From: Candidatus Multivoradales bacterium
Lineage (GTDB): Bacteria; Acidobacteriota; Thermoanaerobaculia; Multivoradales; J023
Direction: 5' to 3'
DNA: 64,000 nucleotides
Assembly (NCBI GenBank): GCA_965248925.1
Contig: CBDFLE010000005.1
Location: forward strand, 1,312,001-1,376,000
The position numbers and the translations under genes are program-made. This document shows, one piece after another, positions 6,637 through 38,341 of this stretch. The notes beneath the pieces were generated by a model. It made no database searches. It was not told the DNA's origin and worked only from the letters and a program-made list of their open reading frames with translations. Position 1 is the stretch's first letter. Each line of letters begins with the position of its first letter.

Positions 6637-8080
6637 TCAATGAAACCGCTCGCCGGCACCCGCCTGGCCCAGAGCCTGACGAGCGGCAGCGAAATCTCCT
6701 TCAGCGGCGCGTAGCAGACCGATCTCCAGGTGTGCCCGAGCGTTGGCCGGGTCGAGCGCCAACACTGCCGCCGCCCGCTGCTCCGCCAGCGCCAGCTCCC
6801 CCAGGCGCTGCTCCGACTCGGCCAAGCCGGCCAAGGCATCGAGGTCGCCAGGGCGGGCTTCAAGGTAGCGCTCGAAATAGCCGCGGGCAGCGGCGTAACG
6901 ACTCTCGTGATTGAGCGCCAGGGCCAGCGGCAAGAAAGCATCGATATAGTCCGGGGCGAGCCGCACCGCCAGCAGCAGCGCCTCCGAGGCCTCTCCCATC
7001 TTGCCCCGCAGGCGCCAAACCCGACCGAGCAGATAGCGGTACTCGGCCACTTCGGGATGCATCCTGACCAGCCAGCACCAGGGCAAGATCGCGGGCGAGG
7101 GCACCGAGCAACGCCGCCCGGCGCAGGTGGTAGATCGCCTGCTGCCGCCGTCCATCACGCCAGAAAAGGCGGGCCAGGGTCTGATGTGCAGCGCCCGGCT
7201 CAGGCCGCGTCGAGACCGCCTTCAGCAATTGCACCTCGGCCTCGGCAAGGCGCCCCTGCTGGGCTAGCAAGCGCCCGACAAGGACCCGAGCGGCGCTGCC
7301 GGCCGGGCCTCCCAGATGGCTTTGCAGCTCGCTAGCGGCGGCTTCGAGGTCTTGATCTTCGATCAGCTCGAGGGCGGCACGCAATGACTCCGGTTCGCTG
7401 GCCAGCAGGGCCACCGGGTCGAGCACCGGCGGTGCCACCCGCCGCCGCGGCCGGGCAGCTTCGAGGTCGAGCTTGCCAAGAGGCTCGCCAACCCCGGCCA
7501 GGGGCTCGAAATCGACCCGGCCACTGAGTGCCGCCGGATCAATCTGGCGTAGCCGATCGAGTTGGGCAACCAGCTCATCCTGGCGGTTTGCCGCCCACAG
7601 GGATTCGGCAAAGTAGCGCTAGGCGATCGCCGAGAGGGCGTCTTCGCTGGCGGTGAGCCGCAGCTCCCGCAACGGCTGCTCGACCTCACCCAGCCGTAGC
7701 TCGACCAGCGCCAGCGCGATGCGCGCCCGGCTGAGATCGACCGCTGCGGCATTGCGAGCCGGTTCGAGATGCTGTTTGGCGGCTGCCAGATCGCCCTTGG
7801 CAACTTCGATCAAGCCGAGCAGGTAGAAGGCCTCGCGGGCCGCTGCCCGATAGTGGCTGGCGGCGATCCGTGGCTCACCTTGGGCAACCGCGGTCTCGGC
7901 TTCGAGGAGCTCCCACTCAAGGGCGGCGGTCGAGGCAGCGTCATCCTCACCTTGGACGATGCTCGCCGCGGCGACCAAGGCGACCCCCATCACCATCCCT
8001 GCCATCACGGCGATGGGTCGGGGCACACCGCCGGAGGGACCGCCCGTGTGGTGGGTCATCGTTGGCAAAGTGGCGGCCAC
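6637..8080 (-). pseudogene. Fragmented TPR-repeat protein
   Basis: ORFs 7619-8080 and 6860-7438 share a frame separated by one TAG (7619-7621); frame change near 7065 into 6637-7158; TPR-like helices throughout. Confidence 0.75.
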
Positions 8081-8093
8081 AGCAGCGGTTCAC

Positions 8094-8834
8094 TCACCGT
8101 AGATTCCCGGCGGTGTAAAGCCCTCGCCGACCAGCTGCCAACGTTCTTCTTCGTCGTGCTGCCAGACCGCCTGAATCGGCTCGCTGGAAGACTTCCGGGC
8201 GCCACCGGATATCTATCTCAGCGCCGACCTGCTCAGCCAGCTCCGGCCAGGCGGTCATCAGGCCGGTGCGGGGCTCGCGCGCCGCCCCAAGGGTCGGATG
8301 GACCACTAGACTGGCTGCATAAGACAGCTGCCAGGCACCCGCCTCATCTACTGTCCACAGGTGCAGATAGTGACCTTCGGTGACCTCTGGATCGGGCATT
8401 GCGGGACGGTGAAAGCTGGTGCGCACCGCGCCGATGGCCCAGCGGAACTCCCCCGAACCTGCCAGCTGGATCCGCAGCGCTTCGGCTTCGTAGCGAAAGT
8501 CGAACTAGTCATCGAAAAGGGGCTTCCAGATCGACATTACCGCCAGCCGGCCGGCATGTAGTTCACCGGCCAAGAACACTGAATCCTAGGCTAGGAGGTG
8601 GCGAAAGCCCGCCCGGTCTCGCTGCCGAGCCACTCGGTTGAAGCCCTGCTCGGCCGCTTCGAGACCGGCCTGGCGGGCCGCCAGATCTAGCTCATGCGAA
8701 GGTTGGTTGGGCGCTGGTGTTGGTGGGTCGGCAGACAGAGGAAGGGCGGCTGCTAGCCACACCAGACAGCCGAGCCAAACGCCCGTTGACAGCGACCTGT
8801 GATGCTGGTTGTTCAAGGTCGCAGGGCCAGCCAT
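8094..8834 (-). pseudogene. Secreted NTF2-like/DUF4440-type protein with two in-frame TAG stops
   Basis: Signal peptide, then AAEQGFNR...FRHLLA*DSVFLAG...WKPLFDD*FDFRYEAE...GHYLHLW reads in one frame through TAGs at 8586-8588 and about 8505. Confidence 0.7.
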
Positions 8835-8900
8835 TGGGATCCTCCAACGGACGAGCCCGCGACGGTCGCCGCGGGCTCTGCGTAGCTGCTCTCGACCAGC

Positions 8901-10626
8901 CTAGCATTTGTTGGTGCACAGTGGGAACGGCTCGTTGGGACCGCTGTAGTGGTCGATCCGCCAACGGTAGGTGCCGCTGGAGCCGTTGTAGCCGTTGACC
9001 GACTCGTCGCAGCCGGCGCTGGTCGAAGAGGCCACCACCGAGAACGAGCAGCCGAACCAACCGCTGCAACTCTCCTTGTCGAGGTAGAGGTCGAGGTCGG
9101 CATTGCCGTTGGTACACACCAGCTCACCGGTGAACGAGCCGCTCGCCGAGCAGTTCGGGGTCACCAGATCGGAGCCACCGGTGGTTGCGGTACCGGTCCA
9201 GATGTTGGTGCCGGTACAGGAGCCACCACCACCGCCACCACCGCCGGTGCTCGGGTCGAGCCACTGCTCGACCGAGGAGAAAGTCGCGGCGAAGGCACCG
9301 TCGACCGTGTGATCATCGCTGTCGCAGGTCGTCGACGGGGTGGCGCCGCAAGCACCGAAGAGCTGACCGACCACCTGGTTGCTGGAGTTGACCACCGGCG
9401 AGCCCGAGCTACCACCCTCGGTATCCGCCAAGGTCGCGTCGCTGTAGATGAAGTTACCGCGCGGCAACGTTCCACAAGTGCCTGCCGTGGTGTTGACCGA
9501 CTGCTCGCTGTAGGCCTGCGGCGAACCCGACGGGTGGCTCACCCGGAACAGGTTGGTGCCCGAGGAGTTGGCCACCGCGGTGGTGGTCCAGCCGAGGAAG
9601 GTGCTGCCGGCCGGCGCCGCCTGGCTGAGCTCGACAAAGGTGAAGTCGGAACTCGAGTTGGTAGCTAAGAGGGTAGAACCGTTGGCGCGCGGCACCGAGC
9701 CCGGCGGGCTGAACTGAGAGCCGCAGCTGGAGCCACAGCCGACCGACCACTGGAAGTAGGCCTCCAGGCTCGAGGCCGAAGTCTGGTTGCTGAAGCAGTG
9801 GTTGGCGGTCAGCAGGTAGGGATCGCCCGAGCTGTCGGTGGTGTTGAGCAAACCGCCGGTGCAGATGAAGCTGCCGCCGCCCGACGAGAAGATCAGGTAG
9901 GCGACACCATTGCGCAACGGCTGGATGGCGCTCGGAATGGAGGCGCAGGAAGCGTTGGTGATGCAGCTGTCATTCCAGCTGCAGAAAGCCTTCTGCGGGT
10001 TGTAGCCAAACTCGTAGCGATCGCCCAGGTGGGCGAGCTCACTGACCCGGAGCAGCTCCTCGCTGGCCTGCCGCTCGCCGAGCGGCAGATGCAGCTGCAG
10101 GACGATCTCGTCGCGGCGACGGTGTTGGTCCACAGATCCTGCTGCTGACCTGCATAGGGACCGAAGGCGTGGCCGTGACGGCCGAAGACATAAAGCTCGG
10201 CGCCCTTCGGCAACGCAACGTCCTCGAGATGTAGGCGGACACCGGTGGCTTCGGCGGAACGGAAAGTGCCACTCCACACCATCTTGCCGTCGGCGAAGGT
10301 AGCAGAGCCCAGCGGCTGCGCCTTGACGCTGGCATCGAAGGTGAATCCGACCTCGGCATTGACACCGACCCACAGCGGTCCACCATTGGACTTGGAGCTA
10401 GCCAGCTCGGCGAGCTTCTCGGCCCCGACCTGAACTTGGTAGGCGGCCTTCTCGGCACCTTCGAAAGAGCTGAGCCAAGCGGGTAAGGCCGCGGTCTCCG
10501 CAACCCGGGCGGCGATGTCCTTTTCGGCGCCCGGAGTGTAAGGCATCACCTCGGCGGCGAGCACCGGGCGGCGATCAGCAGGAGGCCCAGCAGGGCGAGA
10601 GCACTGCGAAGGGTAGACTTCTGCAT
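8901..10626 (-). pseudogene. Secreted lysyl-endopeptidase-like trypsin protease with C-terminal PPC-like domain; two apparent 1-nt deletions
   Basis: GAGGAG RBS and ATG 10626 give signal peptide MQKSTLRSALALLGLLLIAA; frameshifts near 10567 and 10114; motifs CTGGLL, LTANHC, SDFT, TEGGSSGSP; Gly linker; DLDLYL. Confidence 0.82.
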
Positions 10627-29975: not shown

Positions 29976-31163
29976 ATGCGCTGGTTAAAGCAAGTCTGGT
30001 CGATCACCCTATTTAATTTGCGCAACCTGCGCCAACGCCTCGGCTCCTCAGCGGTCACCATTCTCGGTGTTGCCGGCGTGGTGATGGTCTTCGTCGGCAT
30101 TCTGTCGATCGCCGCCGGTTTCCAGCACACCCTGCAATCGACCGGCGATCCGCAGAACGTGTTGGTAATGCGCGCTGGCAGCGACACCGAAATGAACAGT
30201 GGCCTCGGGCTCGAAGCCACCAAGATCATCGCCGATGCTCCCGGCATTTTGCACGGAGAAAGCGGCTCGCTGGCCTCGGCGGAACTCTTTGTAGTCGTCG
30301 ATCAGGCAAAGAAGTCGACCGGAACCTCGGCCAACGTGCCGTTGCGAGGAATCGGTCCCCAAGCCTACGAAGTGCGCAAAAAATTCGAGATCGTCGAGGG
30401 GCGGCGATTCGAACCCGGCCGCAACGAAGTTATCGTCGGCAAGGCAGCAGCCGCAGAATTCGTCGGTCTTGAGGTCGGCAATGTGCTGCGCTGGGGACAG
30501 AACGAGTGGACCGTAGTCGGCCACTTCTCCACCGACGGCACCGTCGAAGATTCCGAGTTGTGGACCGACGCTCGAGTGCTGCAGCCCGCCTACCGCCGCG
30601 GTACCTCATTCCAATCCGTCCGTCTGCGGCTCGAGTCCGCTGGCGGTTTCGATAACCTCAAACAAACCTTGACCGACGATCCGAGGATCAACGTCAAGGT
30701 AATCCGCACCAGCGAGTACTACGCATCTCAGGCCAGCATCATGAGCGGCATGATCCGTTTCGTCGGCATGTCGGTCGGCCTGCTAATGGGTTTCGGCGCC
30801 ATCTTCGGCGCCCTCAACACCATGTACCAGGCGGTCGCCGCCCGCACCCGAGAGATTGCCACCTTGCGCGCCTTGGGCTTTAGCGCCGGCCCGGTAGTGG
30901 TCTCCGTGCTGGTCGAGGCGCTGGCCTTAGCGGCGATCGGCGGCCTGCTCGGCGGCGGTCTGGCCTACCTACTGTTCAACGGCTTCCAGGCCGCGACCCT
31001 CAACTTCAGCAGCTTCAGCCAGGTAGCCTTCGCCTTCGCCGTCACCCCGGCGCTGATCGTCGGCGGCCTGCTCTACGCCCTCGCCATGGGCCTGATCGGC
31101 GGCTTCTTCCCCGCCATCCGCGCCGCCCGGCTGCCGGTGGCGACGGCGCTGCGGGAGCTTTGA
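29976..31163 (+). CDS. ABC permease (FtsX/MacB-like); 3' end is the island insertion site
   Basis: RTREIATLRALGF, PAIRAARLPVATALREL. Confidence 0.92.
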   Translation: MRWLKQVWSITLFNLRNLRQRLGSSAVTILGVAGVVMVFVGILSIAAGFQHTLQSTGDPQNVLVMRAGSDTEMNSGLGLEATKIIADAPGILHGESGSLASAELFVVVDQAKKSTGTSANVPLRGIGPQAYEVRKKFEIVEGRRFEPGRNEVIVGKAAAAEFVGLEVGNVLRWGQNEWTVVGHFSTDGTVEDSELWTDARVLQPAYRRGTSFQSVRLRLESAGGFDNLKQTLTDDPRINVKVIRTSEYYASQASIMSGMIRFVGMSVGLLMGFGAIFGALNTMYQAVAARTREIATLRALGFSAGPVVVSVLVEALALAAIGGLLGGGLAYLLFNGFQAATLNFSSFSQVAFAFAVTPALIVGGLLYALAMGLIGGFFPAIRAARLPVATALREL

Positions 31164-31167
31164 GGAA
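31108..31167 (+). repeat. 60-bp perfect direct repeat, left copy
   Basis: TCCCCGCCATCCGCGCCGCCCGGCTGCCGGTGGCGACGGCGCTGCGGGAGCTTTGAGGAA, identical to 35160-35219. Confidence 0.95.
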
Positions 31168-31347
31168 GGAGGGATTTTTTGTGGCTTCACGGATCCGCAG
31201 AGGAGCCTTCTCTGGTGAACATGAGACAGCAGGTCACCACTTCAAGAGTCCCTGAGCCCAACTGTTCGGTGCAAACTTTTGAAGGCGCCGCCCACTCTTG
31301 CCGTTCTCGAACTGCGCAGATTGAGAATGACCTTGAGTTCCAGTGGC

Positions 31348-32514
31348 TCAGACCTCGAGCAGCGTTTGCGCAAGCTCTTGCGAAGTCGAAGATTCGGACT
31401 CTAATTGGGGGTCGTAGACATCAACGCCACAGGAAAAGCGAAAGTCAAATTCCACCAGTCTTGTCTTCGGCCCCTTCTGAAAGGAACGAGTCTGACTGTT
31501 GTCTGTCGATGATGTCGACCTCTCTAACAGCTCACAAGTTCTTCCGAAACCAACAGACAAAGAAGTACCGAGATTCTCGGTCACACACTCTATATCGAGA
31601 GTTTTTCCGCCGATTCTGATGACTACTTGCGCATTCCTGGCCAGCAGTGGTTTGACTCCCCTCCAAGATTCAGCGAGGAACTTCCAGTAGCGCTCAGGAG
31701 AAACGTGCCGGTCATCGCTACCTTTACTCCGCACCGGCCGAGGGGATCCGCCAAGAAACCAGAGCCTCAACCATTGATCTTCCTCAAAGTTGGTCGTATC
31801 GAGGTAGGGAGGTGACGTGATAATTAGGTTCACCGTTCCCTTCCATCTAGGGAATGACCGATAGGCCGTTCTGGCGTCTCGAAGAGCAACGCGCCCACGA
31901 AACTCGGCTGGGTCTGATTCGAATCTGTACAGGGCTTCTTGTCGAAGGACTCGGAAAACATCTCGTTTCGGGGGCAAGTATCCCTCGCGACGCCACCAGC
32001 CAACTGAGTAGTTACGTTTTGTCGAGATTGTCCTTGGCATCCGGTTCGAGAGATATCGGGCACTTCGATGGCTTTCTCCGTGGAGAACCCCCAGCGCCAA
32101 GGCAGCAATAAATCTGTCTACGCGACTCTTCCTCCAGTTGAGTGCACTCCTCAAGTACATCACCTGACTCAGGGTGTGCTTATGAAAACAAAGCGCAAAG
32201 AACGGATCATCAAGTAGGCAACAGTTAGTTCCCTGGGAGTCAGCAAACCCTGCCTGAAGCTCTCGCATGCGAAGCAGAACCGAACGCATCTCAGGAGGAT
32301 CAGCCTTTGCATTCGAGAGGCAAAAGGCAACAGCGTTGACATCGCAACCAGCGGCCTCACGACCTTGAAGTAAACTCTGGAAGACTGTCGTACCGCGACC
32401 ACTAAACGGGTCGAAGACGCGATCTCCTCGTTTAGTCCAGACAAGGTACTTCTGCACGAATGTCTCAGGAAACATCGCGAAGTAAGGGCAGATTGCGTGA
32501 AATCTATGTCTCAC
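31348..32514 (-). CDS. Amino-DNA methyltransferase, probably m4C, with motif I preceding motif IV
   Basis: CPYFAMFP, DPFSGRGTT (motif I), ITSPPY (motif IV); GTG 32514 overlaps the upstream TGA (the ORF track extends to 32562). Confidence 0.88.
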   Translation of the reverse strand: MRHRFHAICPYFAMFPETFVQKYLVWTKRGDRVFDPFSGRGTTVFQSLLQGREAAGCDVNAVAFCLSNAKADPPEMRSVLLRMRELQAGFADSQGTNCCLLDDPFFALCFHKHTLSQVMYLRSALNWRKSRVDRFIAALALGVLHGESHRSARYLSNRMPRTISTKRNYSVGWWRREGYLPPKRDVFRVLRQEALYRFESDPAEFRGRVALRDARTAYRSFPRWKGTVNLIITSPPYLDTTNFEEDQWLRLWFLGGSPRPVRSKGSDDRHVSPERYWKFLAESWRGVKPLLARNAQVVIRIGGKTLDIECVTENLGTSLSVGFGRTCELLERSTSSTDNSQTRSFQKGPKTRLVEFDFRFSCGVDVYDPQLESESSTSQELAQTLLEV

Positions 32515-33542
32515 AGCTCTCCTAGATTTCTTACTGCCTTTCTGCGAAATGAACGAACCCACTTCCTGACGTCCCGAAGACTCTCAACCCCGTCAATCGG
32601 CTCAACGCCTTGTTTGTGGAGACCCAAAGCCCGCCCCAGGTGGGCGACGAGTCGATGTCGATAGAAGAAAGCGCCGAACTGGAGAGTCAGCACCCTAAGG
32701 TAACCCTGAATCCTCTCTTCGTAGGAAAAGGAACCGAAATTTTCATCGGGTGGCTCAACACAAAAAGGAATAAACAGAGCTGGTGCAGGTTTGGCCGCGG
32801 GACGCTCCTCGAACCAGCACTCAAAGAATGTGTCGAGGTGTAGTCTAACAGACTTGTCACGCCAGTTCGATAGACCAGAGGCTGTCTGCCCAAGAAGGAA
32901 CCGTAGACTAGGGCGGCTGTCAATGTTCGGGCGCCAGGCGATCACATCGATACCACCATCTTTTTCCTTACCGCTCATTCCCGCCAAGGGTTGATCCCGA
33001 ACTTTCCCTTCACCCCAAAGTTCCACGACTTCCCTGAGCTTCTCCCGAATTGCAGATCCATCTGGCCGGGGGAAATCGAAGTAGACCGAGGGTCCGGTCA
33101 TATAGTCAGCTGCGCAGATAGTTGCGCATGCTTGGAACAGGCGTCGCTCGTTGTAAGTAATCGACGGGCTGAGGTCACCCGACAAAATTAGGCTTGAGGT
33201 CGCATGCGAGAGGAGCAGGCAAAACAGATAGGAACTCTGGCCGTCCGACCACCGCTTGGCCAGGACGAGCCGACGCCCGTTACTGCTAAGATCATAAGGA
33301 TACGCGGGGCCCATAACTTTTTTCCGAAAGTTGATCTCTTCTAGAATTTCCCCCAAGCGGGCCTCAGATCTTGCATCATCTTGGTCGAGTTTTTCTGAGT
33401 CCCAGTCTCGATCGAAATCTAAGGCATCGACGACGTCCCGAGTATGACAGGAATAATTTGAGCAGCAGAAGGCGCGCAATTCAAGCCAGTCGCTCCAGAT
33501 CATCAGTGATGCGGACGCCGGAGGAGAACTCAAAGAGGACAA
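32511..33542 (-). CDS. Putative restriction-endonuclease-like PD-(D/E)xK protein
   Basis: KDGGIDVIAW...LGQTASG..NWRDK resembles a D...QxK-type core; SDWLEL N-terminus; translationally coupled to the MTase. Confidence 0.6.
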   Translation of the reverse strand: MSSLSSPPASASLMIWSDWLELRAFCCSNYSCHTRDVVDALDFDRDWDSEKLDQDDARSEARLGEILEEINFRKKVMGPAYPYDLSSNGRRLVLAKRWSDGQSSYLFCLLLSHATSSLILSGDLSPSITYNERRLFQACATICAADYMTGPSVYFDFPRPDGSAIREKLREVVELWGEGKVRDQPLAGMSGKEKDGGIDVIAWRPNIDSRPSLRFLLGQTASGLSNWRDKSVRLHLDTFFECWFEERPAAKPAPALFIPFCVEPPDENFGSFSYEERIQGYLRVLTLQFGAFFYRHRLVAHLGRALGLHKQGVEPIDGVESLRDVRKWVRSFRRKAVRNLGEL

Positions 33543-33546
33543 CAGA

Positions 33547-34665
33547 CTAAACCTCAGCGGGAGCTGTTTTCTGTCGCCCAGTCATCACTTCGATTAGGAT
33601 ATTGGCGTTCTCCGCAAGGCTCTTACCAGTGGCAAAGAGGGTTTCTGTTCCGTCGTATGCCCGCACTTTTGAAAGTGCTTCTTCCGTTTTCTGATTCGCT
33701 TGGACCAGAGCCTGCTCGAATGCTGTTGCCGGAGTCCGGACTAGCTTGTAGGCTTCAACGCGACTGGCGTTAGCCTCCAGGTTCTGGCGGGCCTGGGGGA
33801 CTCGAATGATCTCGTCGAGCTGCTTCACATGAGGGTTCTGAGAAGTAACAAGTGGGTCACACTCATCTTGTTTGGATCCGTAGAGCCACTGCAGAACTCG
33901 TTTCAAATTCTCGAGCTTCTCCGGGGAAACTGGGTTCGGAAGCGGTTCGCTATTGCGCCAGTCATCTGGAAGACCTAAATATGCCCTGAAACCGGGTCGG
34001 GTTATTGCTGTGTAAAGGTGCGAGAAATAAAAGACACGGCCACTGGCACGATCTCGAACATCAAATATCTTCTCTTGTTGAGCCTGAATCAAGACGAGCA
34101 TCCCGTTGACTAGGCGTCGGACGACATCGTGTCTGTCGCCGAGTTTCTTCGCAATTTCTCGGATCGTGATCTTCGGTTGCTCCTTCAAATACCAATTTGT
34201 TGCAAATTTCGCTTTCGGGTAAGAGTCCCATCGGTGAGGGCCATTGATGTGCTTGAATCCAATAAAGGCGCGTGCTGTATGACGGTCGGACACAAAGTAG
34301 ACCGTTACTTTCTCAAGGCTACTCTTCTTGTCTTCGGCAATCTGAGGTACTGAAATACCGATCGTCGCAGCCAATTCGGGTTCGCGGAGAAGACGAAGAG
34401 CAGCCAACCGGCGGTTGCCCTCATAAACGACACTGGAATTGGTGTCTACTAAGAGCGGCTCGATATCGATGTAGCCGTTAGCGGCAATCGACTCTAGGAG
34501 TTCTCCAAGATCGGCTGTTTCGTCAAGGGCTGCAATGGCATCCTCCTCGGTCTGAATCCGGGTCTCGCCGTCGAATAGCCGAGGGTTCTCAAGATCGAAC
34601 TTGAGTGTTTCCACGTCGACTAGGCGTGTGGAAGGCATCGTGTCGTTTGTCATGAGTCTGCTCAT
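33547..34665 (-). CDS. ParB/Srx-like N-terminal domain protein
   Basis: FDLENPRL, SIAANGYIDIEPLLV, VVYEGNRRLAALRLL, HINGPHRW, HTH-like TIREIAKKLG. Confidence 0.82.
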   Translation of the reverse strand: MSRLMTNDTMPSTRLVDVETLKFDLENPRLFDGETRIQTEEDAIAALDETADLGELLESIAANGYIDIEPLLVDTNSSVVYEGNRRLAALRLLREPELAATIGISVPQIAEDKKSSLEKVTVYFVSDRHTARAFIGFKHINGPHRWDSYPKAKFATNWYLKEQPKITIREIAKKLGDRHDVVRRLVNGMLVLIQAQQEKIFDVRDRASGRVFYFSHLYTAITRPGFRAYLGLPDDWRNSEPLPNPVSPEKLENLKRVLQWLYGSKQDECDPLVTSQNPHVKQLDEIIRVPQARQNLEANASRVEAYKLVRTPATAFEQALVQANQKTEEALSKVRAYDGTETLFATGKSLAENANILIEVMTGRQKTAPAEV

Positions 34666-35159
34666 TTCCCAGCAACCTTTCAGGCGGAGGTACCACCATC
34701 ACACCATGAGGCCGTTTGGCCTGGACCAATCTCACTCAGCCACCCTGGCTCAGAGCAGCACGTCCTGCCCCGATTGTCTCAGATACTCAGGGGTTCTGCT
34801 GGCCTGATTCTCAAGTCTGTGCCTTTTGGATCTCTCCTGAATCTGCCTGGACCCTAGCAGCTCGAAGGCAGAGACAATGTCCATAGGGGAAATCTGCCCA
34901 AGGCTTACCCCATGTGGGCGACTATATCGCCTAGGCGAGTGCAAGAGGGCACCACAGGACAGTAGCCAGGAACCGAATCCACGGTTAACACCAGGGTAGG
35001 CACGCGACTAGGATTGCGCAGCCAGTATCGCCGAACAAAGACGCCAAAGTCATTTCTTGATCGAATGAACATCTGCGCCCACTCGCTCCTGCTCTACCGG
35101 TGTTTCGCACCTCCACAGCACATGAACCCTAGGAAACGCGTTCGCGGCCCACAAATCCC

Positions 35160-35219
35160 TCCCCGCCATCCGCGCCGCCCGGCTGCCGGTGGCGACGGCG
35201 CTGCGGGAGCTTTGAGGAA
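35160..35219 (+). repeat. 60-bp perfect direct repeat, right copy
   Basis: Duplicate of the permease 3' end including its TGA. Confidence 0.95.
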
Positions 35220-35244: not shown

Positions 35245-37949
35245 TCAGCTGGCCCGCAGGGCCTCGACGGTGTCGGTGCTTGCCGCCTTTAAGGCAGGTC
35301 CCAAACCAGCCAGGGCGGCGACTCCCAGCAGCAGAACCGCCATGGCGAGGAAGATCATCGGGTCGGTTGGCTCGACACCATAGAGCAACGACTCGACCGA
35401 TCGCGACACCACCAAGGCACCCACGCTGCCGAGGGCCAGACCGCAGCCGGCCAAGAGCAGGGTCCTGCCCACGATGCGTCGCAGAACTCCCGCCGCCGAC
35501 TCTCCCAATGCCATGCGGATGCCAATCTCGGGCAAGCGCTCGTTGACCGAATAGGAGAGCACGCCGTAGATCCCCAAAGCAGCCAGCAGCAGAGCGGTAG
35601 CCGCAAAGGCAATAAGCAATTGCAGGGTGAAGCGGCGCGGTGACATCGAACGCTCAACCACCCCGTCGAGGCTCTGGTATTCGCCGGTCGGCAAGGTCGG
35701 GTCTAGCCGGCTGATCGCCGCCGCAACGCTGGGCACCAGAGCAGTGGCCGCCAAACGCGATCGCACCACCATGTCAAGGGTCTGAAAATCACCATTCTGA
35801 GTGACCGGGAGATACATCTCCGAACCCGCACCCAACTCTAGAGACCGATGCCGCACATCGGCCACCAGCCCCACCACCCGATGCTCCGCGCCGTTGATCA
35901 CCATGATCTGGTCGAGGGCGCGCTGGCCGCCAAAGACCCGCTTGGCGCCAGTCTGATTGAGCATCACGACCCGCTCTTGGTCGCCATCGTCGTGGGCACT
36001 GAAGTAGCGGCCCGCCAGCAGCGGAATCTGCATCGATTGCAAATAGCGGCTATCGATCAAATGGGGGAAGACCACCGTCCACTCTTCACCATCCTGGTAC
36101 TCAACCCCCGGTGCCCGCACCGCCCAGGATCGATTGCGCCCCAAAGGCAGAGCATCCGTGAGGCCCACTGCCTCGACCCCAGGAATCGCTGTCACCGCCG
36201 TCAGCGCACGGTCATAGAAGGCGTTGACCTCCGCCAAGCTGTCGAGATTCTGCGGGGTGTTGATCTGCCAAGCATAGGCCCCAGCGGGCTGAAAACCGAG
36301 ATCGACATCGAGCACCCGCTGGAAACTCTTCAACAACAAGCCGCCGAAGACCAGCAAGACGCAGGCCAGGGCGACCTCGGCAATGACCAGACCCTCGCGC
36401 CAACGGGTACTGCGCCGAGTGGCACTCAATCCCCTGCCCGTGCCTTTGAAGGCAGCTGCCTCACTGCCGTTGGAAACCTGCAGGGCGGCACCAGACCCGC
36501 CGCCAAACCGACGACGAAAGTCAGCGCAGTGGTGAAGAGCAAGGCACCGCCGTCGACCGAGACCGAGCGCAAGAGTGGAATGCTCAGCGCGTTGTCGGAG
36601 GCCGCGAATTCGGTGATCGAAACCGCCAGCAGAAGACCGACCCCAGCACCCGCGGTCGCCAATAGCGAACTCTCGATCAACAGCTGACGCAGCAGCCGCC
36701 AGCGGGAGGCACCCAGAGCACTGCGCACCGCCATCTCGCGACTCCGCTTGGTGCTACTGGCCAACAGCAGGTTAGAGAGATTGACACAAACGATAAGCAT
36801 CACCGCTCCAGCCGCCGCCGCCAGCAGCAACATGGCGGAACGGAAGGGGCCAGCGATCTGCCCCTTGAGAGAACTCACCTTGGCTCCTAAACCCCAACGC
36901 TCTGGATCGTCCTTTTTCAAGGCCGCGAGCACCGCGTCGAGTTCGGCCTGGGCGCTGGCGACGGTGGCGCCGGGAGCCAACCGGCCGATCATCGATAGGG
37001 TATTACCCCAGCGGTCGGTCTGATCGCTGATCGGAAAGACGTGCAAGAAATCTACCCTCGTGCTGGGAGTGAAGATGGAGGCAAAGTCGAAAGATGGAGG
37101 CAGCACACCGACCACCTCGAGCGGGCCATTGCTGAAGGAGATCGTGCTACCGACCACCGCCGGATCGGCGGCGAATCGTCGCTGCCACAAGGCGTGGGAC
37201 AAAATCACCACCGGCGGGCCGTTGTCAGCCCCCTCTTCCAAGACGAAGGCGCGGCCATGGAGCGGCTGCACACCCAGCACCTGGAGGAAATCTTGGGCCA
37301 CCGCTGCGCCGACCAGCCTCTCGGGCTCGCCTTCCCCCACCAGATTGTAGCTGCGGTGCTCGAAGAAGGCGTTGTAGCCGGTGATTGCGGTGAAAGACTG
37401 GGTGCGATCACGGAAGTCGCGCAAGTTGCTGGTGCGCGAAGTAACTGCCGACATGCCGCCCACGCCATCGTTGGCAATCCACACCAGCCGCTCAGCTTCA
37501 GTGAGCGGTAACTGGCGCAGCATCAGAGGGCTCAAGACACTAAACACCGCGGTACAGGCGCCGATCCCCAAGCCGACGATCGGCACCGCGAAGAGAAACA
37601 AGCGCGGATCCTTGCGCACCGCGCGCAGGGCATATTTCGCATCCGAAATCCAAGCCGAAGGTCGCAATAAGTCGCTCACGCTCTCTCCTTTGATTTCCGC
37701 CACCACCAGCGAGCTGAGGGGCTGCCGGCGCTGCCGGCGATCACTCAATCCCAAACTGCAAGCCAACACCAATGCCTGGCGCCAGTACCAGAAGTAAGCC
37801 GTCAATGCTCCCCGCCGCCGTGCTAGCCGGCCACAGTCCTCGCTGAGATCACCGAGGATCGAGCGGGTAATATCGCTGGCGCCAAGGCAGCGCAGCAGCA
37901 GCCACTCTGCCCCCCAGGGGGGTCGCGGGATCTGCTGTAGGCTGCTCAC
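35245..37949 (-). pseudogene. ADOP-type duplicated ABC permease with one frameshift
   Basis: LGIGACTAVFS, CVNLSNLLLA, REMAVRSALGA, EIGIRMALG; halves join if one G is restored near 36486 (VPALQVS). Confidence 0.85.
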
Positions 37950-38272
37950 CGTGGGTCCATCATCGGCCCGAGCGCCGCGAAGAAACGCAGCAGAGTAGTG
38001 CGCGATGCCCGTGCCGCGCTGAGCCCTTCGGCGGAGACCCGCAGTCGGCGCATCGGGTGACCACCGCGTTCAGGAACTCCGCTAGGCTCGATCTCCCAGC
38101 TGATCAGTCTCTTGGCTTCGAGCCGGGCCAGGGTGCGGTAGAGCGCCCCGCGAGTTACCTTGCGGCCAGCGTTCTGCTCGAGGTCCCAGCGCACCCGATT
38201 GGCATAGGGCTCCTCTGCTTGGCGCAGGATCGCCAACAACACCAACAGCTCAAACTCACCCATCTTTGCCAT
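37946..38272 (-). CDS. PadR-family transcriptional regulator
   Basis: MGEFELLVLLAILR, GALYRTLARLEAK, ERGG; directly upstream of the ADOP permease. Confidence 0.9.
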   Translation of the reverse strand: MAKMGEFELLVLLAILRQAEEPYANRVRWDLEQNAGRKVTRGALYRTLARLEAKRLISWEIEPSGVPERGGHPMRRLRVSAEGLSAARASRTTLLRFFAALGPMMDPR

Positions 38273-38291
38273 GCGTTTCCTACCCTGATTT

Positions 38292-38341
38292 TTCAACTCT
38301 CACTCTAATTCTTCAACTCTCATGCGAAGCATACATTGTAT
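38292..38341. promoter_or_regulatory. Candidate padR operator/promoter elements
   Basis: TTCAACTCTCA at 38292 and 38312 (20-bp period); ATACA-T-TGTAT palindrome at 38331-38341. Confidence 0.45.

Follow-up and report, generated by a model that had tools for sequence, protein, structure and literature searches.

What is the function of a three-gene operon that was carried into an acidobacterial chromosome on a small insert, and whose middle gene belongs to no named family? This question is raised by positions 31348–34665 of a 64,000-nucleotide (nt) stretch of the Candidatus Multivoradales bacterium genome (contig CBDFLE010000005.1, positions 1,312,001–1,376,000; hereafter the window), where a first-pass annotation made from the letters alone had proposed a candidate three-gene defence system. 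Our results suggest, with somewhat better than even confidence, that the trio is a restriction–modification (R-M)-like defence or addiction module whose restriction half consists of a ParB-like protein and a middle protein (hereafter Mid). The trio falls within a known kind of system, restriction-like defence guarded by a methylase, and has PD-Lambda-5 as a relative; we found no described type that resembles its restriction half, which combines a clamp-type ParB fold with a lysine-shifted Mrr-like protein.

The three genes lie on the minus strand in the following order: (i) the ParB-like gene (33547–34665, 372 amino acids (aa), ATG start), with a ParB/Srx fold that comprises an N-terminal nucleotide-pocket domain, an EGNRR box, a helix-turn-helix (HTH) and a helical C-terminal part; (ii) the Mid gene (32511–33542, 343 aa, TTG start), which encodes a candidate Mrr-like PD-(D/E)xK-fold protein; and (iii) the DNA methyltransferase gene (31348–32514, 388 aa from the GTG at 32514), in which motif I (DPFSGRGTT) precedes motif IV (SPPY). 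The TAG stop of the ParB-like gene (33549–33547) is followed after 4 nt by the TTG start of Mid at 33542, with GAGG 9–12 nt upstream of that start. At the second junction the tetranucleotide GTGA (32514–32511) overlaps the GTG start of the methyltransferase with the TGA stop of Mid, and AGGAG lies just upstream; both upstream sequences are Shine–Dalgarno-like. The longest methyltransferase open reading frame (ORF) extends over 31348–32562 (404 aa from the first GTG). Because relatives' methyltransferases align only from about residue 17–18 of this long ORF, the start is most likely the GTG at 32514, in agreement with the first-pass annotation. Both junctions, read on the minus strand, also agree with its description of three co-oriented genes that are 4 nt apart or overlap by GTGA, and the EGNRR, DPFSGRGTT and SPPY motifs are present where it placed them.

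To how many genomes does this arrangement extend? Three samples of loci were compared: (i) 80 metagenome loci chosen by likeness to Mid and checked by tblastn; (ii) 80 genome loci chosen by likeness to the ParB-like protein from a collection with one genome per species, in which Mid was located by a hidden Markov model; and (iii) 16 viral loci from IMG/VR chosen by Mid. A ParB-like gene lies directly upstream of Mid in 69 of the 80 metagenome loci. Among the other 11, the contig begins <350 nt upstream of Mid in nine, and two (L034 and L042) have room upstream of Mid and no ParB-like match. Mid lies directly downstream of the ParB-like gene in 77/80 genome loci (it is missing from L102, at a contig end, and from L146 and L161), and the ParB-like gene is present in 15/16 viral loci, the last of which (L213) starts inside the pair. 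This gene order recurs in 80 + 80 + 16 independent loci, which is more than chance would give. Conservation of the neighbourhood, a check named by the first-pass annotation, therefore holds for the pair and, to a lesser degree, for the methylase, which is a neighbour in 70/80 genome loci. A scan of genomes with the ParB-like protein, again at one genome per species, gave at least 414 confirmed places in the Acidobacteriota, Pseudomonadota, Actinomycetota, Chloroflexota, Gemmatimonadota, Cyanobacteriota, Rhodothermota and others. Across many phyla, and in phages as well, computation thus shows the ParB-like protein and Mid to be almost obligate partners.

These counts bear on an explanation that does not involve defence, namely that the trio maintains a mobile element or acts as an epigenetic module, with a partition-like ParB, an orphan methylase that shields the element and Mid as a passenger. 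The trio does occur on prophages and on a small island, and ParB–methylase fusions are described as common in prophages, with an anti-defence role suggested (accessible part of survey PMC12704722). We nevertheless consider this explanation very unlikely: Mid is too constant a neighbour in all three samples to be a passenger, chromosomal loci are far commoner than viral ones (at least 414 genome places against 16 loci), and the window island carries no ParA, plasmid or phage replication genes. As to ParABS in particular, the island holds three genes only and no ParA gene among them, and no parS search was made.

A few loci depart from the usual arrangement. In L146 (4974–9383) and L161 (4–3188) no Mid is recognizable behind the ParB-like gene; its place is taken by an ORF of ~1,000 aa in the former and by two unrelated ORFs in the latter. 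The ParB-like module may have other effectors as partners. In two acidobacterial loci, L096 (6168–7074) and L106 (4902–7768), Mid is divided between two ORFs, and the ParB-like gene of L106 is likewise split; these may be decaying copies or assembly frameshifts. Noviherbaspirillum denitrificans contains two copies of the whole system on different contigs (L119 and L133) with identical ParB-like proteins.

Which methylase stands beside the pair varies among loci. A window-type methylase follows in 57 of the 80 metagenome loci; among the 23 others, 12 have a Dam-like ORF and most of the rest end at a contig edge. The adjacent methylase of the genome loci is of window type in 38 and Dam-like in 33, with both types in L144, and Pfam analysis of the 72 ORFs just downstream in these loci identifies PF01555 in 31 and PF02086 in 23. 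Of the ten genome loci that lack a methylase, five (L102, L110, L111, L121 and L132) break off within ~600 nt of the pair, or of the ParB-like gene where it stands alone, and two (L146 and L161) are those that also lack Mid. In the viral loci a methylase is present in 15/16 (14 Dam-like, mostly convergent, and one of window type), and L214 ends at the pair. The classes found beside the pair are therefore the permuted PF01555 type, the Dam-like PD-Lambda-5_B type and, in P2-like coliphages, a C5 type.

We then compared the distribution of these classes with FastTree trees of 67 ParB-like/Mid pairs. Near-identical proteins are placed in different phyla on both trees, and the methylase class changes six times on the ParB-like tree and six times on the Mid tree (at least four changes are forced by well-supported branches); none of 500 label shuffles gave as few. 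The ParB-like protein and Mid are thus the constant part of the system, which needs a DNA methylase, though no particular one. An exchangeable methylase partner is what R-M logic predicts.

One genome locus contains two methylase genes in different states. In L144, a short ORF directly after Mid (7055–7342) matches part of the window-type methylase (3e-19), and slightly beyond it lies a complete, convergent Dam-like methylase (8236–9117). This arrangement may be the fossil of a methylase replacement.

The window methyltransferase matches Pfam PF01555 in two stretches (2.2e-14; 4.8e-14 for the 388-aa form) and the PADLOC family MTase_II (PDLC03325, 3e-27), and reaches only 0.15 against PF02086. 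It contains both the S-adenosylmethionine motif I and the catalytic motif IV of a Type II R-M methyltransferase. In the alignment to 2zie_A, a beta-class enzyme of solved structure, its SPPY region (residues 208–245) falls on chain residues 23–58 and its FxGxG region (15–59) on residues 220–265. This order shows the enzyme to be related to the beta-class N4/N6 methylases by circular permutation. The initial assignment as a methyltransferase with DPFxGxGTT and SPPY motifs is in line with both the PF01555 match and this permuted order. The sequence is compatible with either N4-methylcytosine or N6-methyladenine as the product.

The constancy of a methylase also bears on the idea that the pair is a modification-dependent enzyme (Type IV, GmrSD-like or Mrr-like) and that the methylase beside it is an unconnected orphan or part of some other system. 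This idea has some appeal because a ParB-fold NTPase with a nuclease is the architecture of GmrSD (accessible parts of PMC10952713 and PMC12839542), and because the nearest matches of Mid, MspJI and Mrr, are modification-dependent enzymes. It is nonetheless the least probable of the explanations considered here: the methylase adjacent in 70/80 genome loci often overlaps the pair translationally, three methylase families occupy its place, and a cell that methylates its own DNA would kill itself with a methyl-dependent nuclease unless the two specificities differed.

We next consider the ParB-like protein, for which Pfam and NCBIfam give nothing useful. All of its 25 PADLOC hits are PD-Lambda-5_A or PDC-M38A: residues 10–175 match positions 1–178 of 466 of PD-Lambda-5_A (E 5.9e-19), and residues 36–330 match positions 44–333 of 715 of PDC-M38A (E 6.1e-19). 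In PHROGs it belongs to phrog_3694, 'unknown function' (9.7e-73). The family contains 2,303 proteins at E ≤ 0.001 among 8,000 candidates scored; the best 120 relatives are about 48–70% identical, and many relatives bear a precomputed PF02195 label. In an alignment of 30 relatives ~90 columns are invariant, including L-x-x-D-x-x-N-P-R, E-G-N-R-R-L-A, I-G-F-K-H-I-N-G-P and parts of the HTH, and the EGNRR box (E78-G79-N80-R81-R82) is present in 30/30.

The AlphaFold2 model of the ParB-like protein (predicted local distance difference test (pLDDT) 82.5) has 19 Foldseek matches in the PDB at E ≤ 0.001, all of them clamp-type ParB proteins. The top match is Bacillus subtilis ParB-CDP (6sdk, E 1.3e-5), followed by Myxococcus xanthus ParB with CTPgammaS or CDP, KorB (8qa9) and Noc (7nfu). 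These matches have a probability of 1.00 and E values of 1.3e-5 to 3.5e-4, and their 254–297 columns span the nucleotide-binding domain and the HTH. Model comparison thus shows a predicted fold of the nucleoside triphosphate (NTP)-switch ParB proteins plus an HTH, and the ParB/Srx-type fold recognized at first pass is recovered as a likeness to the CTP-switch proteins ParB, KorB and Noc.

Possession of an HTH suggests a simpler explanation, in which Mid alone restricts in an ordinary Type II R-M system and the ParB-like protein is only a transcriptional controller, analogous to a large C-protein. Controller proteins are common in Type II systems, the ParB-like protein resembles KorB, itself a ParB-family repressor, its profile weakly matches the CI-repressor HTH (E 0.062), and the predicted complex with Mid (see below) is only weak. 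This explanation appears unlikely to us. Mean pairwise identity is higher for the ParB-like protein (0.40–0.47) than for Mid, the supposed enzyme (0.28–0.36), which argues against a mere repressor role, for which the EGNRR box and ~90 other invariant columns in a 372-aa protein would also be unexpected. It stays with Mid and not with the methylase through at least six methylase swaps and through convergent and upstream arrangements, and PDC-M38A joins this domain to an ATPase-like part. The identity contrast instead fits a conserved engine (the ParB-like protein) with a faster-evolving effector or specificity part (Mid).

Mid has no family in Pfam, NCBIfam or PADLOC-DB v2.0.0, and its PHROGs match is phrog_14650, 'unknown function' (6.3e-33). 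A word-indexed search found just 34 relatives; an exhaustive profile search found 2,552 representatives of clusters at 50% identity with E ≤ 0.001 (1,435 at 1e-10 and 380 at 1e-30). The best 150 relatives are all stand-alone proteins of 163–383 aa. The window protein carries the motif KDGGIDVIAW...LLGQTASG, and the invariant columns of the family are D195, D199, D208, Q219, A221 and K230; D195, D199, D208, Q219 and K230 are retained in all Mid branches, including the Dam-type and P2-type ones.

The fold of Mid, modelled with pLDDT 90.2 and a predicted template-modelling score of 0.91, has as its best PDB match the restriction enzyme MspJI (E 9.2e-3, probability 0.72), and the rows at E > 0.1 include the PD-(D/E)xK proteins VC1899, Mus81, Ecl18kI, SduA, PspGI and XPF. 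Weak top rows in BFVD include 'Mrr-like' and 'PD-(D/E)XK' proteins. Against an 18-member Mrr_cat (PF04471) alignment built from the relatives' genomes, hhalign gave E 1.3e-4 and a probability of 53.8% over 70 columns, with K-D-G-G-I-D-V-I-A-W of Mid on the D-G-G-x-D box of Mrr and Q219 on the Q of QxK. Taken together, the weak Foldseek and hhalign matches suggest that Mid probably has an Mrr-like fold with a relocated lysine. A sequence-profile search of Mid against PDB chains returned chance antibody matches only, and an Atlas search gave Mid's own unnamed clusters apart from a HaeII lead, which we rejected as its score (0.82) is under the trust level.

How does the trio relate to catalogued systems? 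On sequence grounds, the module is a sister of PD-Lambda-5, with the PD-Lambda-5 methylase family in about half of the loci, the PD-Lambda-5 N-terminal ParB domain and a different effector. The Dam-like methylases of the pair loci are PD-Lambda-5_B in 5/5 tested (4.9e-84 to 3.9e-118), and in L114 such a methylase occurs without any PD-Lambda-5_A. An ORF of about 455–500 aa, of PD-Lambda-5_A type, lies in the same cluster as the pair in 12/80 genome loci; 5/5 tested are full-length PD-Lambda-5_A (up to 1.9e-211, positions 1–490 of 491). The genes for PD-Lambda-5_A, PD-Lambda-5_B, the ParB-like protein and Mid follow one another in this order, with head-to-tail overlaps, at actinobacterial loci such as L154. 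Both PD-Lambda-5 and the window-type system occur in prophages.

Several differences separate the two systems. The window ParB-like protein reaches only positions 1–178 of 466 of the PD-Lambda-5_A profile, whereas full-length members elsewhere reach 1–491 of 491, and the C-terminal two thirds of PD-Lambda-5_A (about 440–500 aa) have no match to the window protein. PD-Lambda-5 has two genes and a Dam-like PD-Lambda-5_B methylase; the window system has three, with a methylase of the permuted PF01555 type and a Mid that matches nothing in PADLOC. PD-Lambda-5_B is not among the best 25 of the 44 PADLOC hits of the window methylase, and a weaker hit is possible. PD-Lambda-5 is described as broadly protective, as having needed an mrr-deleted host for cloning and as a compact 'RM+Abi' system (accessible text of Vassallo et al. 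2022, PMC9519451), and it is placed among HEPN-bearing and DNA-modifying systems in the part seen of a review preprint (10.1101/2024.10.26.620412). Pfam at E ≤ 1 identifies no HEPN family in the three window proteins. Given the shared N-terminal ParB domain and the methylase of sister loci together with a different, uncatalogued effector pair, we regard the trio as a relative of PD-Lambda-5 and not a member. The possibility that PD-Lambda-5_A is a ParB–methylase fusion was also considered and rejected: at E ≤ 0.001 Pfam recognizes nothing in five of its full-length members, and the methylase is encoded separately, by the B gene. Pseudomonas phage OQ658368 (L176, 4880–5918) carries a PD-Lambda-5_A-like gene (26.6% identity, 98% query coverage), followed by ~1 kb without an annotated gene where the PD-Lambda-5_B methylase is expected.

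PDC-M38A (715 positions) covers more of the length of the window ParB-like protein than PD-Lambda-5_A does. Its positions 554–665 match an AAA_15/AAA_21 ATPase ORF elsewhere in the same genome, and it therefore appears to be a ParB-like module fused to an ATPase of this type. The sum of the two window proteins (372 + 343 = 715) had suggested a fusion of ParB-like and Mid; we rejected this, as Mid does not match the profile and its C-terminal part matches the ATPase. The ATPase in question is a 706-aa, OLD/AbiEii-like protein on contig C6 (L095, 757–2877) and may be a defence gene. No publication that mentions PDC-M38 was found in the literature search.

Other relatives share parts of the architecture. 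The ParB, Noc and KorB clamps have, like the window protein, a nucleotide-binding domain plus HTH fold and a GxRR box; unlike it, they have GERR as box II and a different C-terminal helical part, and the window protein has a nuclease-like protein and a methylase as its partners. The GmrSD/SspE/DndB-type systems also combine a ParB/Srx-fold nucleotide-binding module with a DNA nuclease module in defence, according to the accessible parts of PMC10952713 and PMC12839542. They differ in their ParB-like domain, which is of the DUF262 branch and has a DGQQR-type motif, and in their nuclease, which is of HNH/His-Me type; GmrSD, moreover, attacks modified DNA and needs no methylase. The trio has instead the EGNRR motif, a fold nearer to clamp-type ParB plus HTH, a PD-(D/E)xK-like partner and a methylase within the module; Pfam identifies no HNH family in Mid (33 members). 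The Mrr/MspJI nucleases resemble Mid in the alignable D-G-G-x-D ... Q core and in MspJI being the best PDB match, and differ in being recognized by Pfam and in having the QxK lysine; Mid has an alanine in place of this lysine and comes with a constant ParB-like partner. ParB–methylase and ParB–HNH fusions are described in the accessible part of survey PMC12704722, and the trio is not mentioned there.

The first-pass annotation did not recognize the trio as a named system. This is correct insofar as PADLOC-DB v2.0.0 has no entry for it and only the N-terminal ParB domain matches PD-Lambda-5_A, yet it needs qualification given the methylase family and N-terminal domain shared with PD-Lambda-5. 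No publication on the trio was found in a literature search of article texts, among them PMC9122126, PMC12704722, PMC12839542 and PMC10952713; the supplements of PMC9519451 and PMC9122126, which cover hotspot gene clusters, could mention the P2-type cassette.

How might such a module work? In the R-M-like reading that we favour, (i) the methyltransferase would mark host DNA as self; (ii) the ParB-like protein would bind DNA through its HTH, with the GxRR nucleotide pocket as an NTP-dependent switch, and may load or close on unmethylated DNA as ParB and KorB clamps do on their sites; (iii) it would then form a complex with Mid and license it; and (iv) the Mrr-like core of Mid (D195/D199...Q219, with K230 or K194 replacing the missing QxK lysine) would cut the DNA. 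Loss of the module would leave the DNA unprotected (addiction), which would explain the persistence of a 4-kb insert without an integrase. Going further, we tentatively propose, as a possibility that we hold with clearly less than even confidence, a new R-M class in which an NTP-gated ParB-type clamp reads unmethylated DNA, closes or slides, and licenses a lysine-shifted Mrr-like nuclease, the ParB-fold sensor being common to the trio, PD-Lambda-5 and PDC-M38A. A predicted complex of the ParB-like protein and Mid received 'weak support', with a score of 0.35 against 0.00 for the best control. The mark that it passed is reached by 58/80 solved complexes and 2/110 mismatched pairs, and scores that pass but do not exceed 0.60 were seen for only 7 of these 80 solved complexes and for both of the passing mismatches. 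Agreement between the runs covers at least 4% of contacts, and the partner pLDDT is at least 79.

Several observations weigh against this reading and should be set out together. At the level of the loci, L109, L139 and L174 have room for a methylase, yet contain the pair without a recognized one. The repeated swaps of methylase family also pose an unsolved specificity problem, since the pair must match different methylases; this would require either that Mid or the HTH changes along with the methylase, or that the sites which the methylases mark are very frequent. For the ParB-like protein, no Pfam ParB_N (PF02195) match occurs at E ≤ 1 and only 4/30 relatives reach this family at E ≤ 0.01. 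Its Foldseek template-modelling scores are low (TMq 0.17–0.29), because only parts (domains) superpose and not the whole arrangement. The canonical ParB box II is GERR, and with Asn in place of the Glu hydrolysis may differ. The predicted contact with Mid is weakly supported, and one of the three complex runs scored 0.00. As to the mode of movement, the island carries no recombinase gene.

The remaining objections concern Mid. None of 33 family members has a relevant Pfam or nuclease-family match at E ≤ 1, Foldseek gives nothing at E ≤ 0.001 in PDB or BFVD, and the lysine column of the Mrr QxK is the invariant Ala221. The nuclease-like middle gene of the first-pass annotation thus survives as a weak MspJI/Mrr likeness, given the Foldseek result and the hhalign probability quoted above; the D-x(n)-QxK-like core that it described has to be corrected to D...Q-x-A, with an invariant alanine at the lysine position. 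Mid may accordingly be an inactive nuclease fold. A related alternative holds that Mid is not a nuclease at all, and that the pair binds, spreads on or silences unmethylated DNA, or triggers abortive infection, with the methylase marking self. ParB-family proteins are known to spread on and condense DNA, which together with the absent catalytic lysine and the lack of a strong nuclease match in Foldseek, Pfam and BFVD gives this alternative some weight, as does the 'RM+Abi' label of PD-Lambda-5 (PMC9519451, accessible text). We still judge it improbable. The DGGID aspartates, Q219, D208 and K230 are kept family-wide, which fits an active site with a moved lysine, and Mrr/MspJI-type nucleases account for all of the best, albeit weak, fold and profile matches.

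Is the pair also present in well-studied organisms? A tblastn search of phage records with the ParB-like protein gave 15 records, mostly P2-like, and the coliphage proteins are 25–28% identical over 84–95% of the query. In Wphi (gp98/gp96/mth) and vB_EcoM-12474III (gp04–gp06), the ParB-like gene is followed by the gene for a hypothetical protein of 330–369 aa and then, in convergent orientation, by that for a C5 cytosine methylase. BLASTP (2e-8 and 9e-6) and reciprocal phrog_3984/phrog_14650 matches identify the hypothetical protein as related to Mid, and the P2-type Mid proteins retain D-G-G-x-D ... Q ... W-x-x-K. The coliphage genes therefore share with the window the order of ParB-like then Mid and a methylase next door, and differ in that the methylase is a convergent C5-cytosine enzyme. 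PADLOC reports for this cassette a partial ParB hit and a DruM/MTase_II methylase only, the C5 enzyme being DruM-like (1e-110).

The cassette lies between portal Q and the replication gene A (gpA) in both phages, and this site of P2 is described as a hotspot for defence systems, among them old, tin and several new ones (PMC9519451, accessible text). It is present in 140/5,426 complete Escherichia coli genomes, 104 with the Wphi type (including E. coli W) and 36 with the other type, where the RefSeq labels read 'ParB N-terminal domain-containing protein', 'hypothetical protein' and 'DNA cytosine methyltransferase'. The P2-like versions have been in GenBank, annotated as hypothetical, since the Wphi record, and the literature search found no report on the function of the coliphage pair.

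If the R-M-like reading is true, the trio represents a widespread system whose restriction half is a ParB-type nucleotide switch plus a nuclease of no named family, with a spread measured by at least 414 genome places, 2,552 Mid clusters and 140 of the complete E. coli genomes. It would (i) extend the ParB-CTPase fold from chromosome segregation and gene silencing into immunity; (ii) tie the unexplained, experimentally validated PD-Lambda-5 to a larger family; and (iii) account for the recurrent cassette of ParB N-terminal domain protein, hypothetical protein and methylase in the P2 defence hotspot. The native version in E. coli W makes the idea directly testable. Automated tools may call Dam-type loci PD-Lambda-5, which would hide the extra effector pair.

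How did the operon reach its present position? The GC content is 0.50–0.56 in 500-nt windows starting from 31250 to 34500, against ~0.58–0.66 on either side. The region is bounded by a perfect direct repeat of 60 nt (100% identity, spacing 4,052 nt), which the first-pass annotation had not seen and which has just two copies in the whole 7.98-Mb assembly. The left, att-like copy (31108–31167) contains the last 56 nt of a permease gene (29976–31163), with its stop codon, and the next 4 nt; the right copy (35160–35219) is followed by a terminator-like hairpin and the stop of a convergent gene (35245–36429). The inserted segment, counted with one repeat copy, is 4,052 bp (31168–35219), has a lower GC content than its flanks and carries the three genes. 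The repeats, which rebuild the permease 3′ end at the island edge, are the footprint of an insertion that duplicated the end of its target gene or imported its own copy of it. The three genes form a translationally coupled operon, and the 4-kb segment that holds it was inserted recently. Besides these genes and their shadow frames, the island contains no ORF of ≥100 aa; together with the GC drop and the sharp edges, this bears out the earlier description of the trio as the sole clear cargo of a bounded, AT-richer island.

The 494 nt upstream of the operon (34666–35159), presumably its promoter region, contain only ORFs of 64–92 aa and have no Rfam match. Promoter and terminator scans were at chance level, with promoter-like sites upstream of the operon no commoner than in shuffles, and a transfer RNA search of the window found none. 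An empty site was not demonstrable, as 0/9 loci examined had the right-flank gene within 1.5 kb, the nearest genomes compared being ~64–71% identical in the permease region. The stretch is contained in four sequencing runs of one sample, with no RNA run among those listed. In the Logan contigs of these runs, the island forms a separate 4,052-nt contig flanked by contigs of the 60-nt repeat, because the repeat breaks short-read assembly, and no joint that skips the island occurs. The depths of island and flank contigs differ slightly, which is neutral on excision since depth cannot be read as a share of cells.

Two minor observations concern the surroundings. The short-read assembly graphs (runs X2–X4) indicate that draft genomes can lack islands of this kind or show them in the wrong place. 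Beyond the right repeat, ORFs of 507 aa (36426–37949) and 394 aa (35245–36429) on the minus strand overlap by 4 nt and are preceded by a small regulator-like ORF (37946–38296). From their translations we take the two to be halves of one large FtsX-type permease, which could be a split gene, a frameshifted gene or a true pair.

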